From the NCBI GenBank assembly GCA_041742355.1, contig JBGSIV010000144.1, forward strand, positions 1 to 15,931: 15,931 nucleotides of DNA, read 5' to 3'. Of this stretch, positions 2,417 to 15,931 are shown piece by piece. Made by a program: the position numbers and the translations under genes. This stretch comes from Candidatus Zixiibacteriota bacterium. Lineage in GTDB: Bacteria > Zixibacteria > MSB-5A5 > GN15 > FEB-12. The notes beneath the pieces are model-generated. The model did no database searches, was not told the origin of the DNA, and saw only the letters and a list, made by a program, of their open reading frames with translations. The first letter of the stretch is position 1. Each line of letters begins with the position of its first letter.

Positions 2417-4042
2417 CTACCGCACGTACGGCGCGGGATCGGTGATCCGCCCGTTAAGTGCTGTCGCTGCGGCCGTCGCCGGCGAACACAGGTACAACTC
2501 CGCCCCGAACTCCGCCGCTTTGCAGAATAACGCCGTATTGGTCGTCGCGAGGCACCGCTCGCCCGCCCCCAGTTGCTCGCCGAGGCGATCCCCGTACAAC
2601 CCCGCCGACGGATCCATGACCGTCGCGCCCGCCTCCACGAACACGCGAATCAACCCCTTCTTCAGCGCTTCAAGATAAACCGACCGCGAGGCCGGCACTA
2701 CCAGCACCCGGCAGTCGGCATGTACCTCTTTCCCCTTGAGGATATCCGCCGCCACCCGAAGGTCATCGAATCGGCCGTTCGTGCCCGTGCCGATCACGAC
2801 CATCTGCACCGTGAGGCCGTCCAGATCCTTTACCGCCCGCACCTCCTCGGTGCTGTTCGGGCCGGCAATCTGCGGCACCAGGGGATCGATATTGATCTGG
2901 AACATCTCGGTATATTCGGCATCCTTGTCTGAAAGCATCGCCTGGAAGTGGCTCCCGTTGCGCGGATTGAGATACCGCCGCGTCACCGCCTCGAACGGGC
3001 AGATAGCCCCTTTCGCCCCGAGGTCGGCGGCCGCGTTGCACAGCGTGATCCGCTCGCTGATCGTCATGTGCGAAATCGCCGGGCCATGGAACTCGATCAC
3101 CCGGTAATCCGCTTTCGACGCACCGAGACGCTTGAGCAGGTTCAGGATGATATCCCGCGTGTACACGCCGCGCGTCCGGCGGCCCGTTACGTCGATTCGG
3201 ATCGTCTCGGGCACCTTCAGCCAGATCCGCCCGCTCGCCCACACCGCCGCCATTTCCATCGGCGAAATCCCGGTCGAAAATGCCGACAGCGCGCCGTACG
3301 TCGTCGCGTACGCATCTGTCCCCACCACCAGTTGCCCCGGCGTCACGAGCCCGTGCTCGGCGACCAGCTGATGGCAGGCGCCCTCGTGCACATCGTAAAA
3401 CTGCTGGATCCCCTGCCGCCGCGCGAACTCCCGCACCGCCATGTAATCGCCCGCCGTGATGCAGCTGTCGCCTTCGCAACAGCGCGACAGGGAGATCGCT
3501 ATCCTCGACGGATTCCACACGTATTCGGTGCCGATCTCTTTGAAGTACCGCAGAACATCGGCGGCGTCGTGATGCGCCACCGTCAGATCCGGCTCGACCG
3601 TGACCAGATCGCCGATCTCAGCTTTTTCCTTCCCCGCCGCCCGCGCGATTATCTTCTGCGCCACTGTCTGCTTGCCGTACAGGCTGACCGCATGCCCGCG
3701 CTGCTTGAGCCCCGGCAGATTCAGCTCCAGCTGCTCAAGCTTCAGAAACGCCGGCTTCTCCTTGATCCCATACCGCCGCCGCCAGTTGTAAAACGCCGCC
3801 TTGGAAATCCCCAGCTCCAGCCCGCATCGATCGTCGTCGCCGAACCGCTCCCACAGGTTGCGCACCTCGGGCTCCGAGAACTTCGGCACCGAGTGTTTGG
3901 CGACATTCTTCTTCCGCCGCCAGTACGCCACGAGGTAGGCCGGCACACCGCCGAGCCGCTCGCCGATCTTTTCGTCGGTCTTGTACAGCTTCTGCAATTG
4001 CAGCAGCTCCGACTTGGTGGGGATCTTTTTGCGGCGCGCCAT
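2417..4042 (-). CDS. LeuC/HacA-family (aconitase-superfamily) large subunit homolog with N-terminal tandem HTH; catalytic and Fe-S motifs degenerate
   Basis: ATG 4042 (MARRKK) lies 1 nt after the HIT stop; 541 aa. LeuC-like segments include QTVAQKIIA, GACHQLV, WLKVPETIRI, ERITLCN, TNGRFDDLRVAA and YLCSPATAAATALNGRITDP. Residues ~10-95 form two HTH-like repeats. Confidence 0.88.
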   Translation of the reverse strand: MARRKKIPTKSELLQLQKLYKTDEKIGERLGGVPAYLVAYWRRKKNVAKHSVPKFSEPEVRNLWERFGDDDRCGLELGISKAAFYNWRRRYGIKEKPAFLKLEQLELNLPGLKQRGHAVSLYGKQTVAQKIIARAAGKEKAEIGDLVTVEPDLTVAHHDAADVLRYFKEIGTEYVWNPSRIAISLSRCCEGDSCITAGDYMAVREFARRQGIQQFYDVHEGACHQLVAEHGLVTPGQLVVGTDAYATTYGALSAFSTGISPMEMAAVWASGRIWLKVPETIRIDVTGRRTRGVYTRDIILNLLKRLGASKADYRVIEFHGPAISHMTISERITLCNAAADLGAKGAICPFEAVTRRYLNPRNGSHFQAMLSDKDAEYTEMFQINIDPLVPQIAGPNSTEEVRAVKDLDGLTVQMVVIGTGTNGRFDDLRVAADILKGKEVHADCRVLVVPASRSVYLEALKKGLIRVFVEAGATVMDPSAGLYGDRLGEQLGAGERCLATTNTALFCKAAEFGAELYLCSPATAAATALNGRITDPAPYVR

Positions 4043-4043
4043 A

Positions 4044-4544
4044 CTACTTTGCCGGCTCCTTCGTAAACTCGCGTCGCAGCAAGTCGTACACCCTGTCCAG
4101 CGGCACCGACATGATCTTCGTCTTGCCGACCACCGGCATGAAATTCGTATCCCCCACCCAGCGCGGCACCACGTGCATGTGCAGGTGCTCCGGAATGCCC
4201 GCGCCCGACTCACGCCCGATATTCATCCCGAGGTTGAACGACCGCGGATGGTACGCCTGCCGCATCATGCGCACCGTCAGGCGCGTCAGCTCGAAAAACT
4301 CCGCCGCTTCTTCGACGGTGAGATCCTCCAGCTCGCCAACATGACGGATCGGCACCACCATCGAGTGCCCCGGATTGTACGGGTACTTATTGATAATCAC
4401 CACGTTGAGGCGGCCACGGTGGACAATGAGGTTATCCACAGAATCCTCGTCTCGCCCGATGCGATTGCAAAACACGCAGCCGTCTTCCTTTTCGCCGAAA
4501 ACGAAGTCGGCTCGCCATGGCGCCCATATCGTATTGTCTTCCAT
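4044..4544 (-). CDS. HIT-family nucleotide hydrolase/phosphorylase (Ap4A phosphorylase-like)
   Basis: Motifs WAPWR, CVFC, NKYPYNPGH, FNLGMNIG, histidine triad HLHMH and PRWVGDTNFM. Confidence 0.92.
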   Translation of the reverse strand: MEDNTIWAPWRADFVFGEKEDGCVFCNRIGRDEDSVDNLIVHRGRLNVVIINKYPYNPGHSMVVPIRHVGELEDLTVEEAAEFFELTRLTVRMMRQAYHPRSFNLGMNIGRESGAGIPEHLHMHVVPRWVGDTNFMPVVGKTKIMSVPLDRVYDLLRREFTKEPAK

Positions 4545-6243: not shown

Positions 6244-7200
6244 ATGCATTACCAGCCGCTCCCGCGACTCGATACCGATACCGGCGCCGTCCGTTCCTCG
6301 CTCTTGCCCCACTGCCGCCTCCGCAAAGGGGACATCTGGCGTGACCCGCTCGGTCGCCATATCGTCGCCTGCGGCGATGCCGCCGACCCCGCGTTTATCC
6401 GCCGCCTCTTCGGGAAGCGCCGCGCCGCCCTTGCCATTCAGGATCCACCGTACAATCTCGTGATGGGGGAGAAGCTCCCCTCACTCGACTACACCGCCTG
6501 GTGCCGGCGCTGGATCGACACGACCTCCTCCATCCTCGCCGCCGACGCCGCCCTCTACATCTGGCTCGGCGCCGACCAGGACCACCACTTCCAGCCGCTG
6601 CCGCAGTTCATGGCGATGATGGCCGACACGCCGTTCGCCTCCCGCTCATTCATCACTATGCGCAACCAGCGCGGCTACGGTACCCAGCGCAACTGGATGG
6701 CCGTCCGCCAGGAACTGCTCTACTACACGAAAGGCAACCCGCCCTTCGCCGTGCAGTACACCGACATTCCGAAAGTCCTCCGCGGCTACTACAAAACTGT
6801 CGATGGTAAGCGCACCGAGAACACCGAGCGGGGGAGAGGCGATACTATCCGCCCCGGCAATGTCTGGGTCGACCTTCAGCAGGTATTCTACCGCCGCGAG
6901 GAAAATGTCAACGGCTGCTATGCACAGAAACCCCTCGCGGCCATCGAGCGTATCGTGATGGCTTCTTCGCGCACCGAGGATCTCGTCACCGATTTCTTCG
7001 CGCACTCGGGCACGACGTTAATCGCCTGCGAGCAGACCGGCCGTCTGTGTGTCACCTGCGACCTCGACCCGGTCTTCGCGGAGATCACGATCCGCCGCCT
7101 TGAACACTTCCGCACCACCGGGCGCACCGGCTGGCAAGCCGGGCACCCCTTTGAACAGGAACTACATCCGAATTCACCTTCTGTCGTTTCGTCTTTGTAA
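6244..7200 (+). CDS. Orphan DNA amino-methyltransferase (N6/N4 family, beta-class motif order)
   Basis: Motif IV DPPY near the N-terminus; QKP and motif I variant DFFAHSGTTL near the C-terminus. ATG 6244 is preferred over TTG 6205 because TTGCGG-18 nt-CATACT lies 6 nt upstream of it. Confidence 0.88.
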   Translation: MHYQPLPRLDTDTGAVRSSLLPHCRLRKGDIWRDPLGRHIVACGDAADPAFIRRLFGKRRAALAIQDPPYNLVMGEKLPSLDYTAWCRRWIDTTSSILAADAALYIWLGADQDHHFQPLPQFMAMMADTPFASRSFITMRNQRGYGTQRNWMAVRQELLYYTKGNPPFAVQYTDIPKVLRGYYKTVDGKRTENTERGRGDTIRPGNVWVDLQQVFYRREENVNGCYAQKPLAAIERIVMASSRTEDLVTDFFAHSGTTLIACEQTGRLCVTCDLDPVFAEITIRRLEHFRTTGRTGWQAGHPFEQELHPNSPSVVSSL

Positions 7201-7212
7201 GTTGGGGACAGC

Positions 7213-7701
7213 ATGAAAGATATCACCGGCACCGTGATCGTCGCCGGCGACGACATCACCACCGAAATGATTTGCCCTGCCAAACACCGCGCGGGGAAAC
7301 GCACCGAGATCGCCAAACACCTGCTTAAGGATCTGCCTGAATTCTCCGGCAAGAAACTGCCCGATAGCGCCATCATCGTGGCCGGCGACCGCTTCGGCCT
7401 CGGCGATGACGCCGAGAACACCGCCCGCGCCCTCCTGGCCGGCGGCGTGCGCTGCATCATCGCCCGATCCTTCCCGCGCGAGTTCTTCCGTCTCGCCATC
7501 AACGCCGGACTCCCGCTCATCACCGCCGACCTCGGCGGCCACTTCGATGGCGGCGAGCAGATCTGCGTCAACCTGCGCCGGGGGGTCATTATCATCGACG
7601 GGGGCGAGATCGAGGTCGGCAAATACTCCGAGCGCGTCGCCCGCATAGTTGAAAGCGGAGGGCTGATCAACGCCGTGCGCAAAGAGTTGGGGAAAGAGTA
7701 A
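7213..7701 (+). CDS. LeuD/HacB-family small (swivel) subunit homolog, catalytic motif degenerate
   Basis: GDDITTEMICPAKH (cf. GDNIDTDxIIPAxY), IIVAGDRFGLGDDAE (cf. IVAGxNFGCGSSRE) and IIARSFPREFFRLAINAGLP (cf. VIAxSFARIFFRNAINxGLP). SD GGGGA. Confidence 0.88.
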   Translation: MKDITGTVIVAGDDITTEMICPAKHRAGKRTEIAKHLLKDLPEFSGKKLPDSAIIVAGDRFGLGDDAENTARALLAGGVRCIIARSFPREFFRLAINAGLPLITADLGGHFDGGEQICVNLRRGVIIIDGGEIEVGKYSERVARIVESGGLINAVRKELGKE

Positions 7702-7716
7702 GGATTTGCGCGCAGG

Positions 7717-7744
7717 GGGAGTTCGCGTCTCGCCCACCCCGCCA
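7717..7744 (+). pseudogene. Degenerate tRNA 3' fragment (T-arm, acceptor strand and CCA; tRNA-Asp-like), probable att-site remnant
   Basis: GGGAG-TTCGCGT-CTCGC-CCACCCC-G-CCA has the 5-7-5-7-1-CCA spacing of a tRNA 3' end with discriminator G. There is one T-stem mismatch and A58 is replaced by C. No 5' half is present. It sits at the GC drop. Confidence 0.55.
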
Positions 7745-7807
7745 TTATCTTCGGTCTATAATAGCCATATTAAGTTTGTCGGTCCGTCAGATGTAAGACG
7801 GTTCACG

Positions 7808-8662
7808 TCAAAGTCTACCTTCGCCAGCGCGCCTCAGCAAAACTACACCGACCAATACGAGCATAATCCATGGTATAGCTGGGATCGAGAGTACGTTGCC
7901 CGGAATTGCATACCATGGGGAGAAATCCCACATTGGGTTCTGGGGCGACCGAAAGACCTCAATCATCTTGATTGCAACGCCCAGTACGGCAAATAGACTA
8001 ATCCCGACAAATGCGCGACTAGCGGATCGTCCGAGCCAGGAAGTTTTGCCGAGTGCAGCAGCAAACGACGCTGTCGCAAGATAAGTCAGCACCGCGCCAA
8101 AGAACAGCGCGACCAAAGACATCTCGTCCAGCATGGGGTTTGTAGAGTTCGCCTGTTGTGAAACAGCGCGCTCAATCGCACGATACTCAATTAAAGAGAT
8201 GGAAGTGAAGATGGCGTAAAGTGGGAAGGCGAATATGATCGCAGCAAAACCGAGCGTTGAGTAAAAACGTTCGCCGGCTTCGCTCAGAGCTTGTCGGAGG
8301 ACCACCAGTCCGCCCGCGATCATAAGCGCATTGATTAGGAGAATAAGATAACGCAGCTGATTCTCTGACGGGGTCGCAAGTGGTGGCGCGCTGAAGCCGG
8401 CAAGGAAGGAAAAGAGAATCCAAGGCATGATCAGCAATCCTCCAGCAACAGCGAGCTTGCGACTATCCTCCGCCTCCGCTTTGATCGCCGACACCCCAAG
8501 TTTCCACGCAGCAACACTGGCTACGATACATTGTATTAGAGCGATCGTGTAATATACAATTGGGCTGTATGTAGCACGCACGGCAAACATCACAGTTATC
8601 AAAACAAGATTGGCACATAGGATAAAGTAGCTTAGGCGACGATTGCTGTGACCTCCTGGCAT
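7808..8662 (-). CDS. Hypothetical polytopic membrane protein (~7-8 TM)
   Basis: 284-aa ORF with SD GAAGGG and many hydrophobic segments. No family recognised. Confidence 0.8.
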   Translation of the reverse strand: MPGGHSNRRLSYFILCANLVLITVMFAVRATYSPIVYYTIALIQCIVASVAAWKLGVSAIKAEAEDSRKLAVAGGLLIMPWILFSFLAGFSAPPLATPSENQLRYLILLINALMIAGGLVVLRQALSEAGERFYSTLGFAAIIFAFPLYAIFTSISLIEYRAIERAVSQQANSTNPMLDEMSLVALFFGAVLTYLATASFAAALGKTSWLGRSASRAFVGISLFAVLGVAIKMIEVFRSPQNPMWDFSPWYAIPGNVLSIPAIPWIMLVLVGVVLLRRAGEGRL

Positions 8663-8735
8663 ATGTTGTTCCCTTCAGTTGGAAGTGCGTCCGCAGAGAA
8701 ACCGGACAATGTGATACTCTAATTTAAGAGCCACT

Positions 8736-8882
8736 TTATCCTAAGGCAACAGCTATCAATGATGAGAATCCTGTGCCTGGCAATCGGTTGTTTTCCGTCG
8801 AGTTCCGCCTATTCGAGCATACTGGAACCGAATAGCGCAGTCTAAGCTCACAGGAGTCTGGGGAGAGTGAGGGCGGGGCCGC
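8736..8882. repeat. Direct repeat copy A (att-like junction)
   Basis: Core 8849-8882 CACAGGAGTCTGGGGAGAGTGAGGGCGGGGCCGC is 30/34 identical to copy B and 27/34 to copy C. Weaker similarity extends leftward. Confidence 0.85.
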
Positions 8883-9058
8883 TTTATTCACGGGTCCCCA
8901 TACTCTACGATTAATCTGTTTTCCTTCCGGCAATTTCTCTAAGTTCTTGAAAGTCTCTTAATCCTCTCTTGGGACAGGGCAGGACAAGACAACAAACCCT
9001 CAGTCAATGACGGTGGAAAGTCTTGTAAGTACAGCGTAACGGATAAGTGTGCCATAAA

Positions 9059-10441
9059 CTACTGTTGTACGTCTCTCTCTGATTCGCGCTCTTGGGCAGC
9101 TTTGATTTGCTCCCAATTGACACTCTTCTCGATCGGCTGCCCATGTTCCTCAGGGCTTCTATACGTACCTCGTTCGACGACTGGTTTATCGATTTCAACC
9201 TGTAAGCGATGCTCCCGGGCGTATGCATCGCGACGAATACCGGTCACCTGCCAGGAAACTTCCACATTTGGGCTGTCGGTTCGAATGACGAAGCGGTTGC
9301 TAGTAATCTTCGCAGCGACAATCGCTTGAGCGAACTGACCAATTACCGTGAGCTGATACCGGAAATCCATGTTCAGTGCTTCAAAATACGCCGGAAGGGT
9401 CACAACGGCCATACCTTTGGTATCCGTCACTGTGATGCCGTCGTAGATGTTCTTCATGTCGGGCGACTCGACGAAACTGTGTTGAAGGTACTTGTTTCCC
9501 GGATCAAGGGGATGGTCGATCTTAAACGCGCCTGCGTTTTTTGTCAGCGTGCCGCCGATATCAACATTACCTGCGAAATAACCAGCATAGCCAGCGCCAG
9601 TGCCGATCTTCAATCCATAAATGGCAAAAGCAGAGGCGCCTGGTCCTGAAGCGGCAGCTCCGTATACGCCATACGACGCCCCAGAACTCTTTGAACTTCT
9701 TCCTGCTGAACCATAAATACCATATTGACTTGCTGTCGAAGTTGGGTCGTTTGCAACCGAGGCATAGACCCCATACCTGAGTCCACGACCATCTCCGATT
9801 GTATCACCTACCGCGTAGTATGCACCGTAAAGAATCCCCCCCAAGCTATTATGTAGATCGGAATAATACCCAAATCGAGCAGCGGAGGTACTGTAACTTC
9901 GCGTTGCTCGGATCAGGTAAGAGCTGCTGGGGCTAATTGAATCCCCAATTCTAATACCGTTATCGTCTGCTAGCATCGTGCTATCACCAATCTTGACTAC
10001 ACCACCAGTAAAGACTGCGTCACCGGTGATCGTGCCTCCCGATGCTCCATCCACAGAATTGACTCTGAATGCATAGCCAGTAGAAACAAGCGACGTGCGT
10101 GGAAGGAGCGTCTCGTTATTGAAGTTCACTTGCAAGTAAAGTGAATCGTATTTTGCAAACAAACTGTCCGGAATCGGATTCACACCGCCCATCATGCAAT
10201 TGAACAGCCCGCCAGTAGTCGTGACATTTACTCCTTCTTCCGACCAACGTAAACTCCCGACTGTCGGGTGATCCCAAATGAGAAATTTAACTGGATACGT
10301 GCCGTCCGGCACTAAATTACCTGAGGCGTCGGTGGCCCTTCCTTGATAACTGATTACTCTTGGCACGCCGGCTGTTGCCACGACCACCAACAGCCAACAA
10401 ACGATGATTGAGAGAACGAAGATTTTGTAGTGATGTCTCAT
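9059..10441 (-). CDS. Secreted/surface protein with N-terminal VPxxISYQG domain, GxYG-rich repeats and C-terminal FKIDHPLDP domain
   Basis: ATG 10441 follows SD GGGAG. Signal peptide MRHHYKIFVLSIIVCWLLVVVATA, repeats YGVYA/YGIYG/YGVYG/AIYG/YAGYFAG, and C-terminal FKIDHPLDPGNKYLQHSFVESPDMKNIYDG. The track start at 10540 is probably too long. Confidence 0.8.
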   Translation of the reverse strand: MRHHYKIFVLSIIVCWLLVVVATAGVPRVISYQGRATDASGNLVPDGTYPVKFLIWDHPTVGSLRWSEEGVNVTTTGGLFNCMMGGVNPIPDSLFAKYDSLYLQVNFNNETLLPRTSLVSTGYAFRVNSVDGASGGTITGDAVFTGGVVKIGDSTMLADDNGIRIGDSISPSSSYLIRATRSYSTSAARFGYYSDLHNSLGGILYGAYYAVGDTIGDGRGLRYGVYASVANDPTSTASQYGIYGSAGRSSKSSGASYGVYGAAASGPGASAFAIYGLKIGTGAGYAGYFAGNVDIGGTLTKNAGAFKIDHPLDPGNKYLQHSFVESPDMKNIYDGITVTDTKGMAVVTLPAYFEALNMDFRYQLTVIGQFAQAIVAAKITSNRFVIRTDSPNVEVSWQVTGIRRDAYAREHRLQVEIDKPVVERGTYRSPEEHGQPIEKSVNWEQIKAAQERESERDVQQ

Positions 10442-10577
10442 GACGTTACTCCCGGATATATATGAATCTGTGGGCTTGATTGCGATTCGGGATCGCTTGT
10501 GATGACGACAAAATTGGCAGAATGTACGAGCGCATGACAAGAGACCTTTCCAAAGGTAAGTAGGCTCGCTGTAATGA

Positions 10578-10586
10578 AATATAACA
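10578..10586 (-). promoter_or_regulatory. Possible extended -10 promoter for the 9059-10441 gene
   Basis: Minus strand TGT-TATATT, with TTGATT 15 nt upstream of the hexamer. Confidence 0.35.
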
Positions 10587-10626
10587 AAAGGCCTCGCTAA
10601 TCAAAGGCGGATTGTTGGGGAAGGGA

Positions 10627-10794
10627 TTACTGAATGCTTAGGTTGGAAGCCTGCCCGAATGCAGTCCGAATCAACGATGACGCTCCTCGCATTTGATTGC
10701 CTTCCATCGACTTCCGCTGACTCGGGTATAGTGAAACAGGATCGGAAACTGGAACACCACAGGAGTTTGGCGAAAGTGAGGTCGGGGCCGCCAT
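10627..10794. repeat. Direct repeat copy B (att-like junction, keeps terminal CCA)
   Basis: Core 10758-10793 CACAGGAGTTTGGCGAAAGTGAGGTCGGGGCCGCCA. The minus strand is a 55-aa ORF MAAPTSLSPNSCGV...SIQ. Confidence 0.85.
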
Positions 10795-10911
10795 TTCTTG
10801 CTCACTGAAAGGGTCTTCTTATTGGCTTCAGCTCAACCAAGACGATATATACCATTTTGGGGGAACGATTCAGAACATTGCGTGTCGCACTGAATCGAAT
10901 AGACACACTAT

Positions 10912-11817
10912 TCAAGGCCTATACTTATAAATCACAGCGGAACTGACCCAATGGGCGCTCAGACCCGCACCCGTATTTCTTAGAAAAAACAGATATTTCC
11001 CATCCCGAGTCACATTGGCTCCAACTTCATGGACGTACCGCTCATTGAGTTCTTCCATAGGTACGGCCTGAATCCAGGCGCCGGCAGCGTTCTTGAAGCT
11101 TATGTATAAATCTGCATACTTGATTTCTGATTTATTGTCTACACGGGACAGAATAAGATAACTCTCGTCAGGGGCAATGAATGGTTCATTATCGTTCGTT
11201 TCCCCGTTAATCGCAGGACCAAGAGCTTCTGGTTCGGCATATTCGCCGTCGACAAAACGGGACATATAAATGTCTCCGTCGCCGGTAGAGCTTGAACTGA
11301 AATACAAGTTTCCGTTATCAGCAACCGATACCTGCCAATGCAGACGCAGTCTATTTATTTTTTCACTCAGTTGTTGCGGCGCGCTCCAACCTTCTCCATC
11401 GCGCTCCATGAACCAGATATTTTCCTTGGGATCGGCGCCAGCACTTCTGGGTACCCTGGAATTGAAAAATAGACGTTTCCCGTCGGGTGTCAGGATGGGT
11501 GAATCGGACCAGTTAAGCTCCCTGGAAAATGCGAACTCCTTGGGAATGCTCCATACGCCATCTACTGTTGTGGAATAATGCATCCGAAAGCCGGCCATGG
11601 TTGACCAATATGCTTCCATCCCATCAGGCGTAAACACCGGACAGCCGTGTAGATCAGGTTCAATGATGCCTTGAGCAAAAACAAGCGGTTTCAAGTCTGG
11701 AGGTTTCTGCCCAAGATAGGGACCTGTCAGAACCGGGAAATCATCCTGCTGTGCGTTGACAATAGGAGTCAATATAGCGGAAACTACAATCAGAGCGCCA
11801 ATTGCAATTAATCTCAT
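10912..11817 (-). CDS. Secreted PD40/TolB-like beta-propeller protein
   Basis: Signal peptide, GPYLGQKPP, and PD40-like repeats PVFTPDG, PILTPDGKRLFFNS, PFIAPDESYLI and VTRDGKYLFF. Confidence 0.85.
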   Translation of the reverse strand: MRLIAIGALIVVSAILTPIVNAQQDDFPVLTGPYLGQKPPDLKPLVFAQGIIEPDLHGCPVFTPDGMEAYWSTMAGFRMHYSTTVDGVWSIPKEFAFSRELNWSDSPILTPDGKRLFFNSRVPRSAGADPKENIWFMERDGEGWSAPQQLSEKINRLRLHWQVSVADNGNLYFSSSSTGDGDIYMSRFVDGEYAEPEALGPAINGETNDNEPFIAPDESYLILSRVDNKSEIKYADLYISFKNAAGAWIQAVPMEELNERYVHEVGANVTRDGKYLFFLRNTGAGLSAHWVSSAVIYKYRP

Positions 11818-11877
11818 TGTTCGGTAACCTCGATTCTGTTCAATTATCTCCTACTACGTTAAAGAGAACGAGACGTT

Positions 11878-11986
11878 TCATTTCAGTTTATTAGCTTCCG
11901 ACGTGTTCCGGCTGGCGAGGAATAGCTCGATTTGACTTGAAATCTGAACTCCATAAAAGTTTGTGGAGAGTGATGTCGGGGCCGCC
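11878..11986. repeat. Direct repeat copy C (att-like junction)
   Basis: Core 11952-11985 CATAAAAGTTTGTGGAGAGTGATGTCGGGGCCGC is 27/34 identical to copies A and B. Confidence 0.8.
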
Positions 11987-12327
11987 CTTGTGTCCCGTTG
12001 TCTCTGTCCTCGGATTGTGGCCACAGCAATATCCGGCACCCCGCTTCCCCCAGCGACTCTGCCTGAGGTTCTGGCCCGGATCTCTCTCAATTCCCACTGA
12101 CGACTTTTCCTCCGCAGCGTTTGGTATTGCCGGCACGCGCCGAACTCCTGCAACCTCGACAGAGCGTGAGCGTAAGCGGGAGGAAAAGAGTCTTCTTACT
12201 CATGTCCATTCTTAGTTGAACAAACAGCCTCTCCCCACGTCTATAGTGCATAGCCGCCAGTTGCACCAGTTTGCCTATAGATGAGCCAAAGAGCGTAACA
12301 GGAGTTTCATCATCGAGGGTATTGCTA

Positions 12328-14064
12328 ATGAAGGACTATTGTGGTCGGGTGGCGATGCGGAGCGCACTGGCATTACTGCTGGCTGGATCCGCCGGAACCG
12401 CTGCGGACTTGCACAGGAACACTCTCTCGGCAGTACAAACGGACTCCGTCAGCTGCCGGCATGACTTCGGGGACAATGGTTTTGTCGGCACTTCAAGCGA
12501 GTGTGAAATCTACTACGGTCTGAATGACAGTCACGGGCACAGCTGGGTTCAGGAGAACAACCAGGGCGTCGTGGGTATCACGTACTTTCAACGGTTGGAA
12601 GATGGCAGTCAGAACGGCTCGCTGATATACAGGACAATTCATCCCGATGGGACCATAGAATCTGAAACGGTCGCTGAAGGCACTCGACTGCAACGATCGG
12701 TCTTGTTGTACGATTCACTCTCCATGCCGCACATCTTTGTGGCACAATCCGGCACCGGAGATCAGATTATTGAGCACTACTACAAAGGCGATTCGGGTCT
12801 GTGGCAGAGGGAAGAGGTATTCCACTTCTTCAGCTGGGGAGGTCGATACATTTACGAGTTGTCAGCCGATCTCGGGCCTGACAATTCCTTCCACCTGCTT
12901 GTGTTGAAGACGCAATCCGATGTCGATTCCGACGACTACTGGAATGCCTGGATGAACGCATCTCTGTTTCATATCTCAAATGCACCCGGCTTCTGGCGGA
13001 CAGATTTCATTTACAGTTACAATACGGCCTACACATATGATCATTACATCAAGTGCTCATGTCGCCAGGACATCGAGGTGGATCATGATGGCTATGTGCA
13101 TGTTGTCTTCTCGCAGCAGATAGTGGCTGTCGACGATCCCTCGAGACTCCTCTACGCGACGAACAAATCCGGCTCCTGGAAAATTGAGACGGCGCTCAGC
13201 AATGATTTCGGGGCCAGGGATGATGCGGGTTGGTTTCCCTCGCTGTGTCTCGACCGGCAGGGGACACCGTATGTCGCGTGCATGTATGTCAACCGGGTAT
13301 ATACCTATTCGGCCGTCTACTGCAAGCTCTTCCTGCTGCAGAGAGTGAGCGAGGGCGTCTGGCAGCGCCAGCTCGTTGCAGAGAGTGATGACGGGTATTA
13401 TGGCAGTGACGGCAGGCGTTATACGGGTGCTTTGTCGCATCTGGTGTTCGACCGCGACAACGTTCCCCACATACTCTTCTCCGATATCGCTTCCTCGCAC
13501 CGGACATACCAGCACCTGAACGTGGGCAACATAAGACACGCGGTGTACCGGGGCGGCGCCTGGAACCTAACAACGATCTATCGACAACCGCTGCCCATTG
13601 CTTTCCAGAACGCAACCGAGATGTTCGGAGAGTGCCTCGTCGTATCCGATCTGACCGATACCATACGCGTCATCGGGCAGGAACTGAAGGTTACCGGGCC
13701 GGGGGCATATTCCGTCGGACTTGTGGAGTTCGCATGGGCCGACATTGCGACATCGGCTTCCGATGAACCTGCGGCAAACTTGCCCGACCAGTTCTGCCTG
13801 ATCCAGAACTACCCGAACCCGTTCAACCAGGGGACGGTGATCGGGTACAGCCTCCCGACTCGATCACAGGTGACAATCGAGATCTTTGACATCCTCGGCC
13901 ACCTGGTCCGGACATTGGTAAATGGATCCAGGGCAGCCGGTTCATATTGGATAGAATGGGACGGAGTCGCTGACGGCGGAGCTGGCGCGGCTACCGGCGT
14001 GTATCTGTATCGTCTCCGGGCCGGCGATGTTGAGCAGACAAAGAAGATGTTGCTGATCAAGTAG
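12328..14064 (+). CDS. Secreted protein with beta-rich repeats and C-terminal FlgD-Ig / T9SS type-A-like sorting domain
   Basis: ATG 12328 follows GAGGG (alternative start 12355). Signal-like segment RSALALLLAGSAGTA. C-terminus QNYPNPFN...IFDILGHLVRTL...WDG...GVYLYRL...KKMLLIK. Confidence 0.82.
   Translation: MKDYCGRVAMRSALALLLAGSAGTAADLHRNTLSAVQTDSVSCRHDFGDNGFVGTSSECEIYYGLNDSHGHSWVQENNQGVVGITYFQRLEDGSQNGSLIYRTIHPDGTIESETVAEGTRLQRSVLLYDSLSMPHIFVAQSGTGDQIIEHYYKGDSGLWQREEVFHFFSWGGRYIYELSADLGPDNSFHLLVLKTQSDVDSDDYWNAWMNASLFHISNAPGFWRTDFIYSYNTAYTYDHYIKCSCRQDIEVDHDGYVHVVFSQQIVAVDDPSRLLYATNKSGSWKIETALSNDFGARDDAGWFPSLCLDRQGTPYVACMYVNRVYTYSAVYCKLFLLQRVSEGVWQRQLVAESDDGYYGSDGRRYTGALSHLVFDRDNVPHILFSDIASSHRTYQHLNVGNIRHAVYRGGAWNLTTIYRQPLPIAFQNATEMFGECLVVSDLTDTIRVIGQELKVTGPGAYSVGLVEFAWADIATSASDEPAANLPDQFCLIQNYPNPFNQGTVIGYSLPTRSQVTIEIFDILGHLVRTLVNGSRAAGSYWIEWDGVADGGAGAATGVYLYRLRAGDVEQTKKMLLIK

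Positions 14065-14241: not shown

Positions 14242-15931
<1,690 letters not shown>

Follow-up and report, generated by a model that had tools for sequence, protein, structure and literature searches.

Repeated segments that stay open to translation on one strand of a genomic island raise the question of what they encode, in which reading frame and as part of which gene. The question is posed here by a stretch of 15,931 nucleotides from a Candidatus Zixiibacteriota bacterium, hereafter the window (contig C144 of genome G000), in which three minus-strand copies (A, B and C) of a repeat termed family D2 are present, aligned and spaced by 1909 and 1194 nucleotides. The original prediction saw in these copies a conserved minus-strand peptide, possibly the detached C-terminus of a recombinase. 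We argue that the repeats are very probably the P arms of the attP site of a tRNA-Asp-targeting large serine recombinase (LSR), which double as the last 33 codons of the LSR gene, and that the arrays formed by serial insertion of units. The earlier concept holds; its reading frame does not.

The window and the repeat family

The left, host-like flank of the island is a leuD-like gene (Aconitase_C; 7213..7701, plus strand), and the GC content drops from 0.63 left of position 7700 to 0.47-0.51 in three units at 7743-11985, each of which contains one gene, is terminated by a repeat copy and lacks an LSR. Between leuD and the units lies a putative pseudo-attB B arm (7719..7744, plus strand), a mimic of the 3' end of tRNA-Asp(GTC) that is identical at 23/26 positions and includes the core CCGC at 7739-7742. 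Unit 1 (7743-8882; GC 0.51) encodes a 284-aa, probably membrane-bound protein with no family above cut-off (7808..8662, minus strand). It ends with copy A (8756..8881, minus strand), a P arm with the LSR tail RPRPHSPQTP...GTRRKTT (41 aa to the stop), and crossover core A, CCGC (minus strand GCGG; 8879..8882, plus strand); this tail is decayed, with the conserved W replaced by R. The cargo of unit 2 (8883-10791; GC 0.49) is an ORF of up to 493 aa (9059..10540, minus strand) for a probably exported protein, whose match to Bdello_MAT_N is weak and below cut-off. Its P arm, copy B (10671..10790, minus strand), carries in the true frame the tail RPRPHFRQTPVVFQF...GSRWKAIK, 39 aa to the stop, and is followed by core B (10788..10791, plus strand). 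Unit 3 (10792-11985; GC 0.47), the whole of which recurs in locus L211, encodes a 301-aa PD40 beta-propeller protein (10912..11817, minus strand) and ends with copy C (11883..11984, minus strand) and core C (11982..11985, plus strand); the tail of copy C, RPRHHSPQTFMEF...GTRRKLIN and stop, has the family length of 33 aa and again R in place of the conserved W. The outer part of the island comprises the gene for a 597-aa exported protein with a FlgD-Ig/T9SS-like C-terminal domain (12271..14064, plus strand) and a catalase-peroxidase (katG-like) gene (14242..15931, minus strand), which is interrupted by the contig end and is probably older cargo.

No tRNA and no Rfam RNA were found in the window, Pfam gave no match above cut-off on the tails, and promoters and terminators are not enriched at 7600-12400 (4 and 3 found versus 4.8 and 5.1 in shuffles). 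An aconitase-family (LeuC-like) ORF at 2417-4213 (minus strand), with a long N-terminal extension that weakly matches an HTH, is neither next to the leuD-like gene nor encoded on its strand.

The repeat greatly exceeds chance expectation, as a pattern of 25 nt matches in 27 of 61 related genomes, versus one with the backwards control. G000 itself contains six copies, three of them outside the window on contigs C167 and C299, and matches to the tail profile occur in 96/160 genomes of the order, with a maximum of 37 in one genome. Exact matches to the pattern number 49 in the genome collection and, judged by record titles, comprise 15 Zixibacteria, 24 Ignavibacteria-like genomes, 5 unnamed bacteria and 5 from other groups. 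The copies form same-strand arrays, and the spacing from left to right box is constant in 114 of 133 distinct copies. The repeat pattern is absent from viral contigs, and none of 29 viral loci with related LSRs matches the repeat model; five of these with readable ends stop in other tRNA-antisense or in unrelated sequence. Some arrays are very long, with 21 sites in 55 kb of G016 (C5 1-55000) and 37 tail matches in G070.

A recombinase with two C-termini

The proposal that the repeats are P-arm tails of a recombinase gene spanning attP is supported by full-length LSRs that end in the tail (L048/P0001, P0002 and L071). In genome G001, a 511-aa ORF (L048:9798-11333) with Resolvase, Recombinase and Zn-ribbon domains, all above cut-off, reads through the repeat and ends RPQYHSPQTF...GTRWKTI. 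The tRNA-antisense variant expected of the integrated state was found as well: beside tRNA-Asp the LSR has 480 aa and ends ...SxRG before the stop, while at array junctions it has 511 aa. Among 30 LSR-related loci, fetched with the LSR C-terminus, 14 abut a whole tRNA-Asp, so that the gene ends in the antisense tRNA and overlaps attL at its 3' end; three abut a tRNA-Asp 3' fragment, four join the P arm described here, two join another arm, one runs into a contig end and six lie at other sites. The 24 homologous proteins, which where named are mostly from Zixibacteria, have tRNA-derived C-termini in 16 cases (14 end RG and two end RGRRDSNSRPPA), two carry the present tail and six end otherwise. 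LSR C-terminal pieces fused to the tail were also seen, by eye, in about 8 of 25 fetched profile matches (out of 73, many of which are chance matches to long repeat proteins).

Only GCGG, sometimes TGGCGG, is common to the tRNA-joined and the arm-joined forms, which places the crossover at the last encoded bases of the tRNA. A strict LSR-tRNA-Asp junction pattern occurs in 20/251 genomes of the phylum and not at all in the control. The core was also considered as a copy of a host tRNA ending in GTCGGGGCCGCCA, and this was rejected: the genome has no such tRNA, and CCGC alone is common to both.

The recombinase resembles solved LSRs in fold (9dxh_A, Z 17.5, rmsd 18.7 over 446 residues; 4kis_B, Z 14.4, rmsd 10.2 over 278 residues). 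Since these structures align to residues 1-473 only, the tail is an appendage that the canonical fold does not need. Two AlphaFold2 runs predict a beta-hairpin in the second half of the tail (pLDDT ~70-80), behind a low-confidence linker, and in a fold search with the C-terminal model the tail is barely covered among the matches listed. For protein P0001 the scores fall far short of the cut-offs for CcrA/B/C and XisF. No description of the tRNA-Asp LSR family was found in a search of mostly open-access literature; island databases may list these sites.

In three genomes (G001, G130 and G018) the tailed LSR lies outward of an arm-bearing neighbour unit, in which, for G001 and G130, no LSR ORF is evident; an incoming unit can thus complete a resident gene. 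The original prediction that such a gene is completed only in the excised circle was right about a gene spanning attP but too narrow, as a chromosomal copy becomes whole too where another unit adjoins on its tRNA side. The nearest neighbours of the G001 LSR match Phage_integrase, HTH_17 and QueC. The 37-kb element with this tailed LSR (G001 C24 ~16800-53600; L048, L161 and L049) bears a tyrosine-recombinase gene, QueC-like genes, a type I-E-like CRISPR-cas set and arsenic-resistance-like genes, most of these labels having been read from sequence.

No tRNA-Asp-type LSR was found in G000, which is 93.8% complete, and the nearest LSR there is 50% identical to the tRNA-Asp family and resides at tRNA-Ser; the array may thus be inert in this host. 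The two tyrosine recombinases of G000 are both encoded on contigs other than that of the window. Three LSRs of this genome, that at tRNA-Ser being one of them, are encoded on C99 (L055:991-2439), C191 and C138 at tRNA-Ser, tRNA-Met and tRNA-Leu, and each ends in antisense tRNA. Elsewhere, members of the same LSR family are joined to other arms and bear other tails (L059 and L069; P0007, P0015 and P0020), and hence more than one P-arm family uses tRNA-Asp.

The reading frame of the tail

A DNA profile search yielded 133 distinct copies, of which 109 ungapped, non-redundant ones entered the frame statistics; the other 24 were set aside because of shifted or weak boxes (22) or as near-duplicates (2). 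Expected stop counts were taken from 300 column shuffles, and alignments A3 and A5, which had been picked for stop-free tails, provide no evidence of openness. The LSR frame, one base off the frame first proposed, contains 22 stops in 31 codons versus 41.4 expected, the lowest of the 300 shuffles giving 31. Its first stop falls at codon 34 in 49/109 copies, and 19/109 tails contain stops. In the frame first proposed, stops are at chance level (64 versus 61.6 expected), and 43/109 copies have one within the first 31 codons, which speaks against that frame (AAPTSLS) as the conserved one.

Over codons 12-31, pN/pS is 0.65 (0.47-0.84) in the LSR frame versus 0.94 (0.76-1.20) in the other, intervals that are too narrow and overstate the certainty because the repeat copies are related. 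The LSR frame gives 0.67 in the variable spacer and 0.59 in the right box, and in this frame alone the two segments are depleted of stops. Over its first 11 codons the value is 1.16, as for a DNA site; the same stretch gives 0.57 in the frame first proposed. Purifying selection on the tail thus appears to act in the LSR frame, as judged from these alignments, with none evident in the other. Common variants have a pN/pS of 0.60 and rare ones of 1.27, which fits past selection followed by decay.

The three peptides initially described translate as written, and an ATG is present in copy B only. All three copies are open in the register first proposed, but three out of three would be expected about 22% of the time (0.605 cubed). 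The statement that many differences are synonymous fails on counting: among A, B and C that frame has 9 synonymous versus 60 non-synonymous codon differences (3/19, 5/18 and 1/23). The SSLI match between A and B lies beyond the stop codon of the family, and SSL occurs there in only 4/109 copies. The ATG of copy B, taken as a possible start, consists of an A plus the TG of TGG (Trp), the antisense of the CCA of the tRNA; such an ATG is found in 47/109 copies, of which 16 have an in-frame stop and only two an SD-like motif. The ORF originally noted (10627..10794, minus strand; MAAPTSLS...) is open, but an off-frame shadow of the tail: its peptide gives no LSR alignment at E<=100, and the frame one base further in copy B shows 14/32 identities to LSR residues 479-510 (E 5e-7). 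No protein ending in the originally proposed tail was found among six candidates in a weak search.

The units and their recurrence

The 160 distinct units have a median length of 1.6 kb; 129 are at most 3 kb long, 103 contain one ORF, and none contains an intact LSR, in a set of locus sizes that under-samples large units. Cargo genes are oriented against the repeat in 84 cases and with it in 67. Several units recur in other contexts. In L211 the unit between cores B and C is matched from end to end at 83.5% over 1199 nt, beginning at core C; the outer flank there is unrelated (14/60), and so is the DNA beyond the next arm. Pieces of this unit that are 97.6-99.4% identical occur in sequencing runs X3 and X5 of two other studies, where parts of the window are without cover, which is uninformative at that depth. 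The copies of a 568-nt unit in L173, L192 and L205 are 97-98% identical, two of them lying beside different tRNA-Asp alleles. A 1.45-kb unit ends at the C299 mimic in G000 and at tRNA-Asp in G060, the P' end being shared by both (27/35). These recurrent units are compatible with movement in cis or in trans.

A short LSR-coding piece lies on the P' side of about 6/109 junctions, including that of copy E in G000 and none of A, B and C, which indicates that some units are deletion remnants; 100/109 junctions score no such remnant. For two pairs of homologous units, the P-arm spacers resemble each other no better than those of an average pair (ranks 58 and 75 of 96), and units thus exchange or lose ends. 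Terminal repeats indicative of excised circles were found in 0/132 metagenome loci, no joint at a core was seen among the best 15 of 75 sequence-run contigs listed, and the run matches listed include no RNA run. The end of C167 and the start of C156 in G000, which show no overlap, are probably parts of a single large exported-protein unit that lies between copy D and tRNA-Asp and is interrupted by a gap in the assembly.

Alternative explanations

An account that retains the att origin considers the units as fossils of the CIME type, namely former full LSR elements from which deletion removed the LSR and most of the DNA, and which move only as passengers or by ordinary recombination. We give it an appreciable but lesser probability. 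Decay is a described route to CIMEs in the available part of the literature (PMC5704250), and it would agree with the few LSR-coding remnants at junctions, the stops in 19/109 tails, the neutral-looking rare variants and the lack of a cognate LSR in the G000 assembly. The great majority of junctions score no remnant, however, whole units are conserved with both ends in different hosts and sites, and one is 97-98% identical between unrelated outer flanks; recurrent units may nonetheless have been transferred as passengers whose helper was then lost precisely. Another account, which we deem improbable, has the arm conserved only as DNA, with binding sites for the LSR or accessory factors, and the 33-aa tail as functionless read-through. 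The first 11 codons vary as expected of a DNA site, the related LSRs P0007, P0015 and P0020 bear tails of other sequence, and the fold is complete without the tail; yet spacer and right box show reduced pN/pS and a depletion of stops confined to the LSR frame, the length is constant in 114/133 copies, and the hairpin is predicted in both AlphaFold2 runs.

Accounts that dispense with the recombinase gene fare worse. A family of small peptides in the frame first proposed is very improbable: the three open window copies, the ATG in nearly half of the copies and the low pN/pS of the first 11 codons would suit it, but stops are at chance level and at no fixed place, codons 12-31 show no selection (0.94), SD-like motifs are all but missing (2/47), and the weak search found no longer protein with the peptide. 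The refuting condition attached to the original prediction already rules this reading out. To a still smaller degree of probability we hold integron attC sites or a structured leader RNA ahead of each cargo gene, although same-strand arrays of mostly single-gene units with a median of 1.6 kb recall such systems: attC-like ends occur in 0/109 copies with no consensus pair on either strand, the ssDNA fold z is below -2 in 0/40, Rfam gives no match, and cargo orientation is mixed. The fold and attC-end tests rule out attC, riboswitch and ssDNA hairpin.

A model for array growth

We thus return to the repeats as P arms that double as the end of an LSR gene. Where both arms are joined, the gene is seen to read P' arm, GCGG core and P arm into a protein of 511 aa, and beside tRNA-Asp the same family ends in the antisense tRNA at ~480 aa; integration would hence remove 31 residues and leave the tail at the far end. 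Each new unit probably enters at the tRNA-proximal site and pushes older ones outward, by which every junction would come to consist of a P arm, the core and the P' end of an older unit. Most units appear as LSR-less, single-gene segments of 1-3 kb, some with the same two ends in different hosts. We lean towards the view that an LSR encoded elsewhere excises them as circles and inserts them again, either on their own or in tandem with it. By a slighter inclination, the tailed form made from the circle would be the integrating enzyme, since only circles and junctions encode it, and truncation would damp it or bias it towards excision. The window array would have grown from the tRNA-Asp mimic behind leuD, with tails that are now decaying.

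A bolder extension, which we regard as speculative and rather unlikely, is that single-gene circles without an LSR insert in trans at tRNA-Asp or at mimics of it, and that landing beside a resident, truncated LSR, as in the arrangement of G001, G130 and G018, restores the C-terminal hairpin and switches the enzyme to the integrating form on the chromosome. If true, the system would be the serine-recombinase counterpart of an integron, equipped with a switch of its own, and would explain protein-coding tails kept in cassettes as well as arrays of 20 or more units.

Relation to known systems

The recombinase shares its domains, fold and short central overlap with phage large serine integrases (Bxb1, phiC31 and Listeria LI), whereas its attP lies inside the 3' end of its own gene, and the 33-aa tail extends beyond the aligned range of the listed LSR structures. 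In the IntP/IntX system of Myxococcus phage Mx8, which targets tRNA-Asp, and in split integrases of the SSV1 type, integration also rewrites the C-terminus of the integrase. The Mx8 and SSV1-type enzymes are viral tyrosine recombinases, however, and are not known to form arrays of single-gene units. With integrons the present arrays share the outcome, small gene cassettes growing at one end, but they differ by a serine recombinase, the lack of attC hairpins, mixed cargo orientation and the lack of a recombinase fixed at the array.

The nearest precedent described is dsiB in the Dehalococcoides ssrA islands, which, in the accessible part of that report, stand in tandem at the 3' end of an RNA gene with the 3' end of dsiB overlapping attL, and 15/31 of which lack the integration module (PMC3146451). 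Both features, tandem units at an RNA gene end and an LSR gene overlapping attL, are found here. The ssrA islands target ssrA with a 20-bp direct repeat from the T-loop (PMC3146451); the present target is tRNA-Asp, the overlap measures 4-6 bp at the acceptor end, and the units are mostly single genes of 1-3 kb. The module of the ssrA islands counts six genes, among them that of a further, small serine recombinase, DsiA (PMC3146451). The C-termini of DsiB are called divergent there (PMC3146451), unlike the detached fragment described here, which has constant length, appears to be under purifying selection and is seen fused. CIMEs, according to the text available, lack integration genes, keep their att sites, stack at tRNA 3' ends and are described as decayed elements carried in cis (PMC5704250). 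The window units likewise lack an integrase, keep att sites and stand in tandem at a target, but many units here bear no LSR trace and recur with exact ends, and their junctions are attP-like and encode part of a recombinase. The tycheposons of Prochlorococcus, as far as the accessible text describes them, integrate serially at tRNAs, push old elements into the island and deliver adaptive cargo; 910/937 use tyrosine recombinases, and they carry their own integrase and have partial tRNA copies as borders (bioRxiv 10.1101/2020.12.28.424599).

The general theme is already known, and the tRNA-Asp LSR with a detached tail is a variant of it. McMurdie et al. proposed in 2011 that dsiB is complete only in the circle or when an island bearing the 3' fragment lies next to it, a hypothesis that, as worded in the accessible part of the paper (PMC3146451), can be tested directly here, both natural LSR forms being available together with the precise crossover point, the host site and about a hundred variants of the tail. 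Should the tail govern direction or activity, it would provide control of a serine integrase without a separate directionality factor; RDF binding is predicted at the junction of zinc and coiled-coil domains in the accessible text (PMC11795197). The system also illustrates the acquisition of accessory genes by an uncultured lineage, tails being present in more than half of the genomes of the order, and since the enzyme targets a conserved tRNA end, it may suit use as an integration tool.

Anchors and island borders

In relatives, arrays start at tRNA-Asp. The segment 7719-7744 is the best match to the tRNA-Asp 3' end in the 4.37-Mb genome after the tRNA itself, and a strict anchor motif occurs four times in G000, at the tRNA, the window site, the C299 array and one unoccupied place. 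By sequence comparison, the window array is anchored on the tRNA-Asp mimic after leuD. An exact contig (spanning 7249-8828) of run X1, which may be the source sample, bridges leuD, anchor and copy A, and mimics lie at the tRNA-proximal side in 4/26 other stretches with no tRNA in view (background ~0.04 per 6 kb).

In G001 and G002, leuD is directly followed by an lpxH-like gene and the anchor site is thus empty; in G003 one small gene lies between leuD and lpxH, the latter label having been read from sequence. In G000 the lpxH-like gene is located on C49, behind the start of katG, a Fur/PerR-like gene and a phosphatase-like gene, and hence we infer that the window contig and C49, which do not overlap, join at katG. 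No outermost P arm is detectable near lpxH on C49. In G051 a similar pair of katG and Fur/PerR-like genes sits between two P arms. More generally, outer array ends repeatedly carry katG, accompanied by a Fur/PerR-like gene where one was seen, and kdp genes (window 14242-15931 plus C49 1-950; G051 L033 16940-19705; G002 L036 4554-6764), which suggests that they are old, ameliorated cargo.

Away from tRNAs, tRNA-Asp mimics of two recurrent classes serve as anchors for arrays (G050, L041 ~7032; G087, L148; G017, L045; G025, L047; G000, C299 ~7187-7211). The G050 site is nearly identical to that of the window, and the sites in G017, G025 and C299 have further upstream sequence in common, as if the mimic travels on another element.
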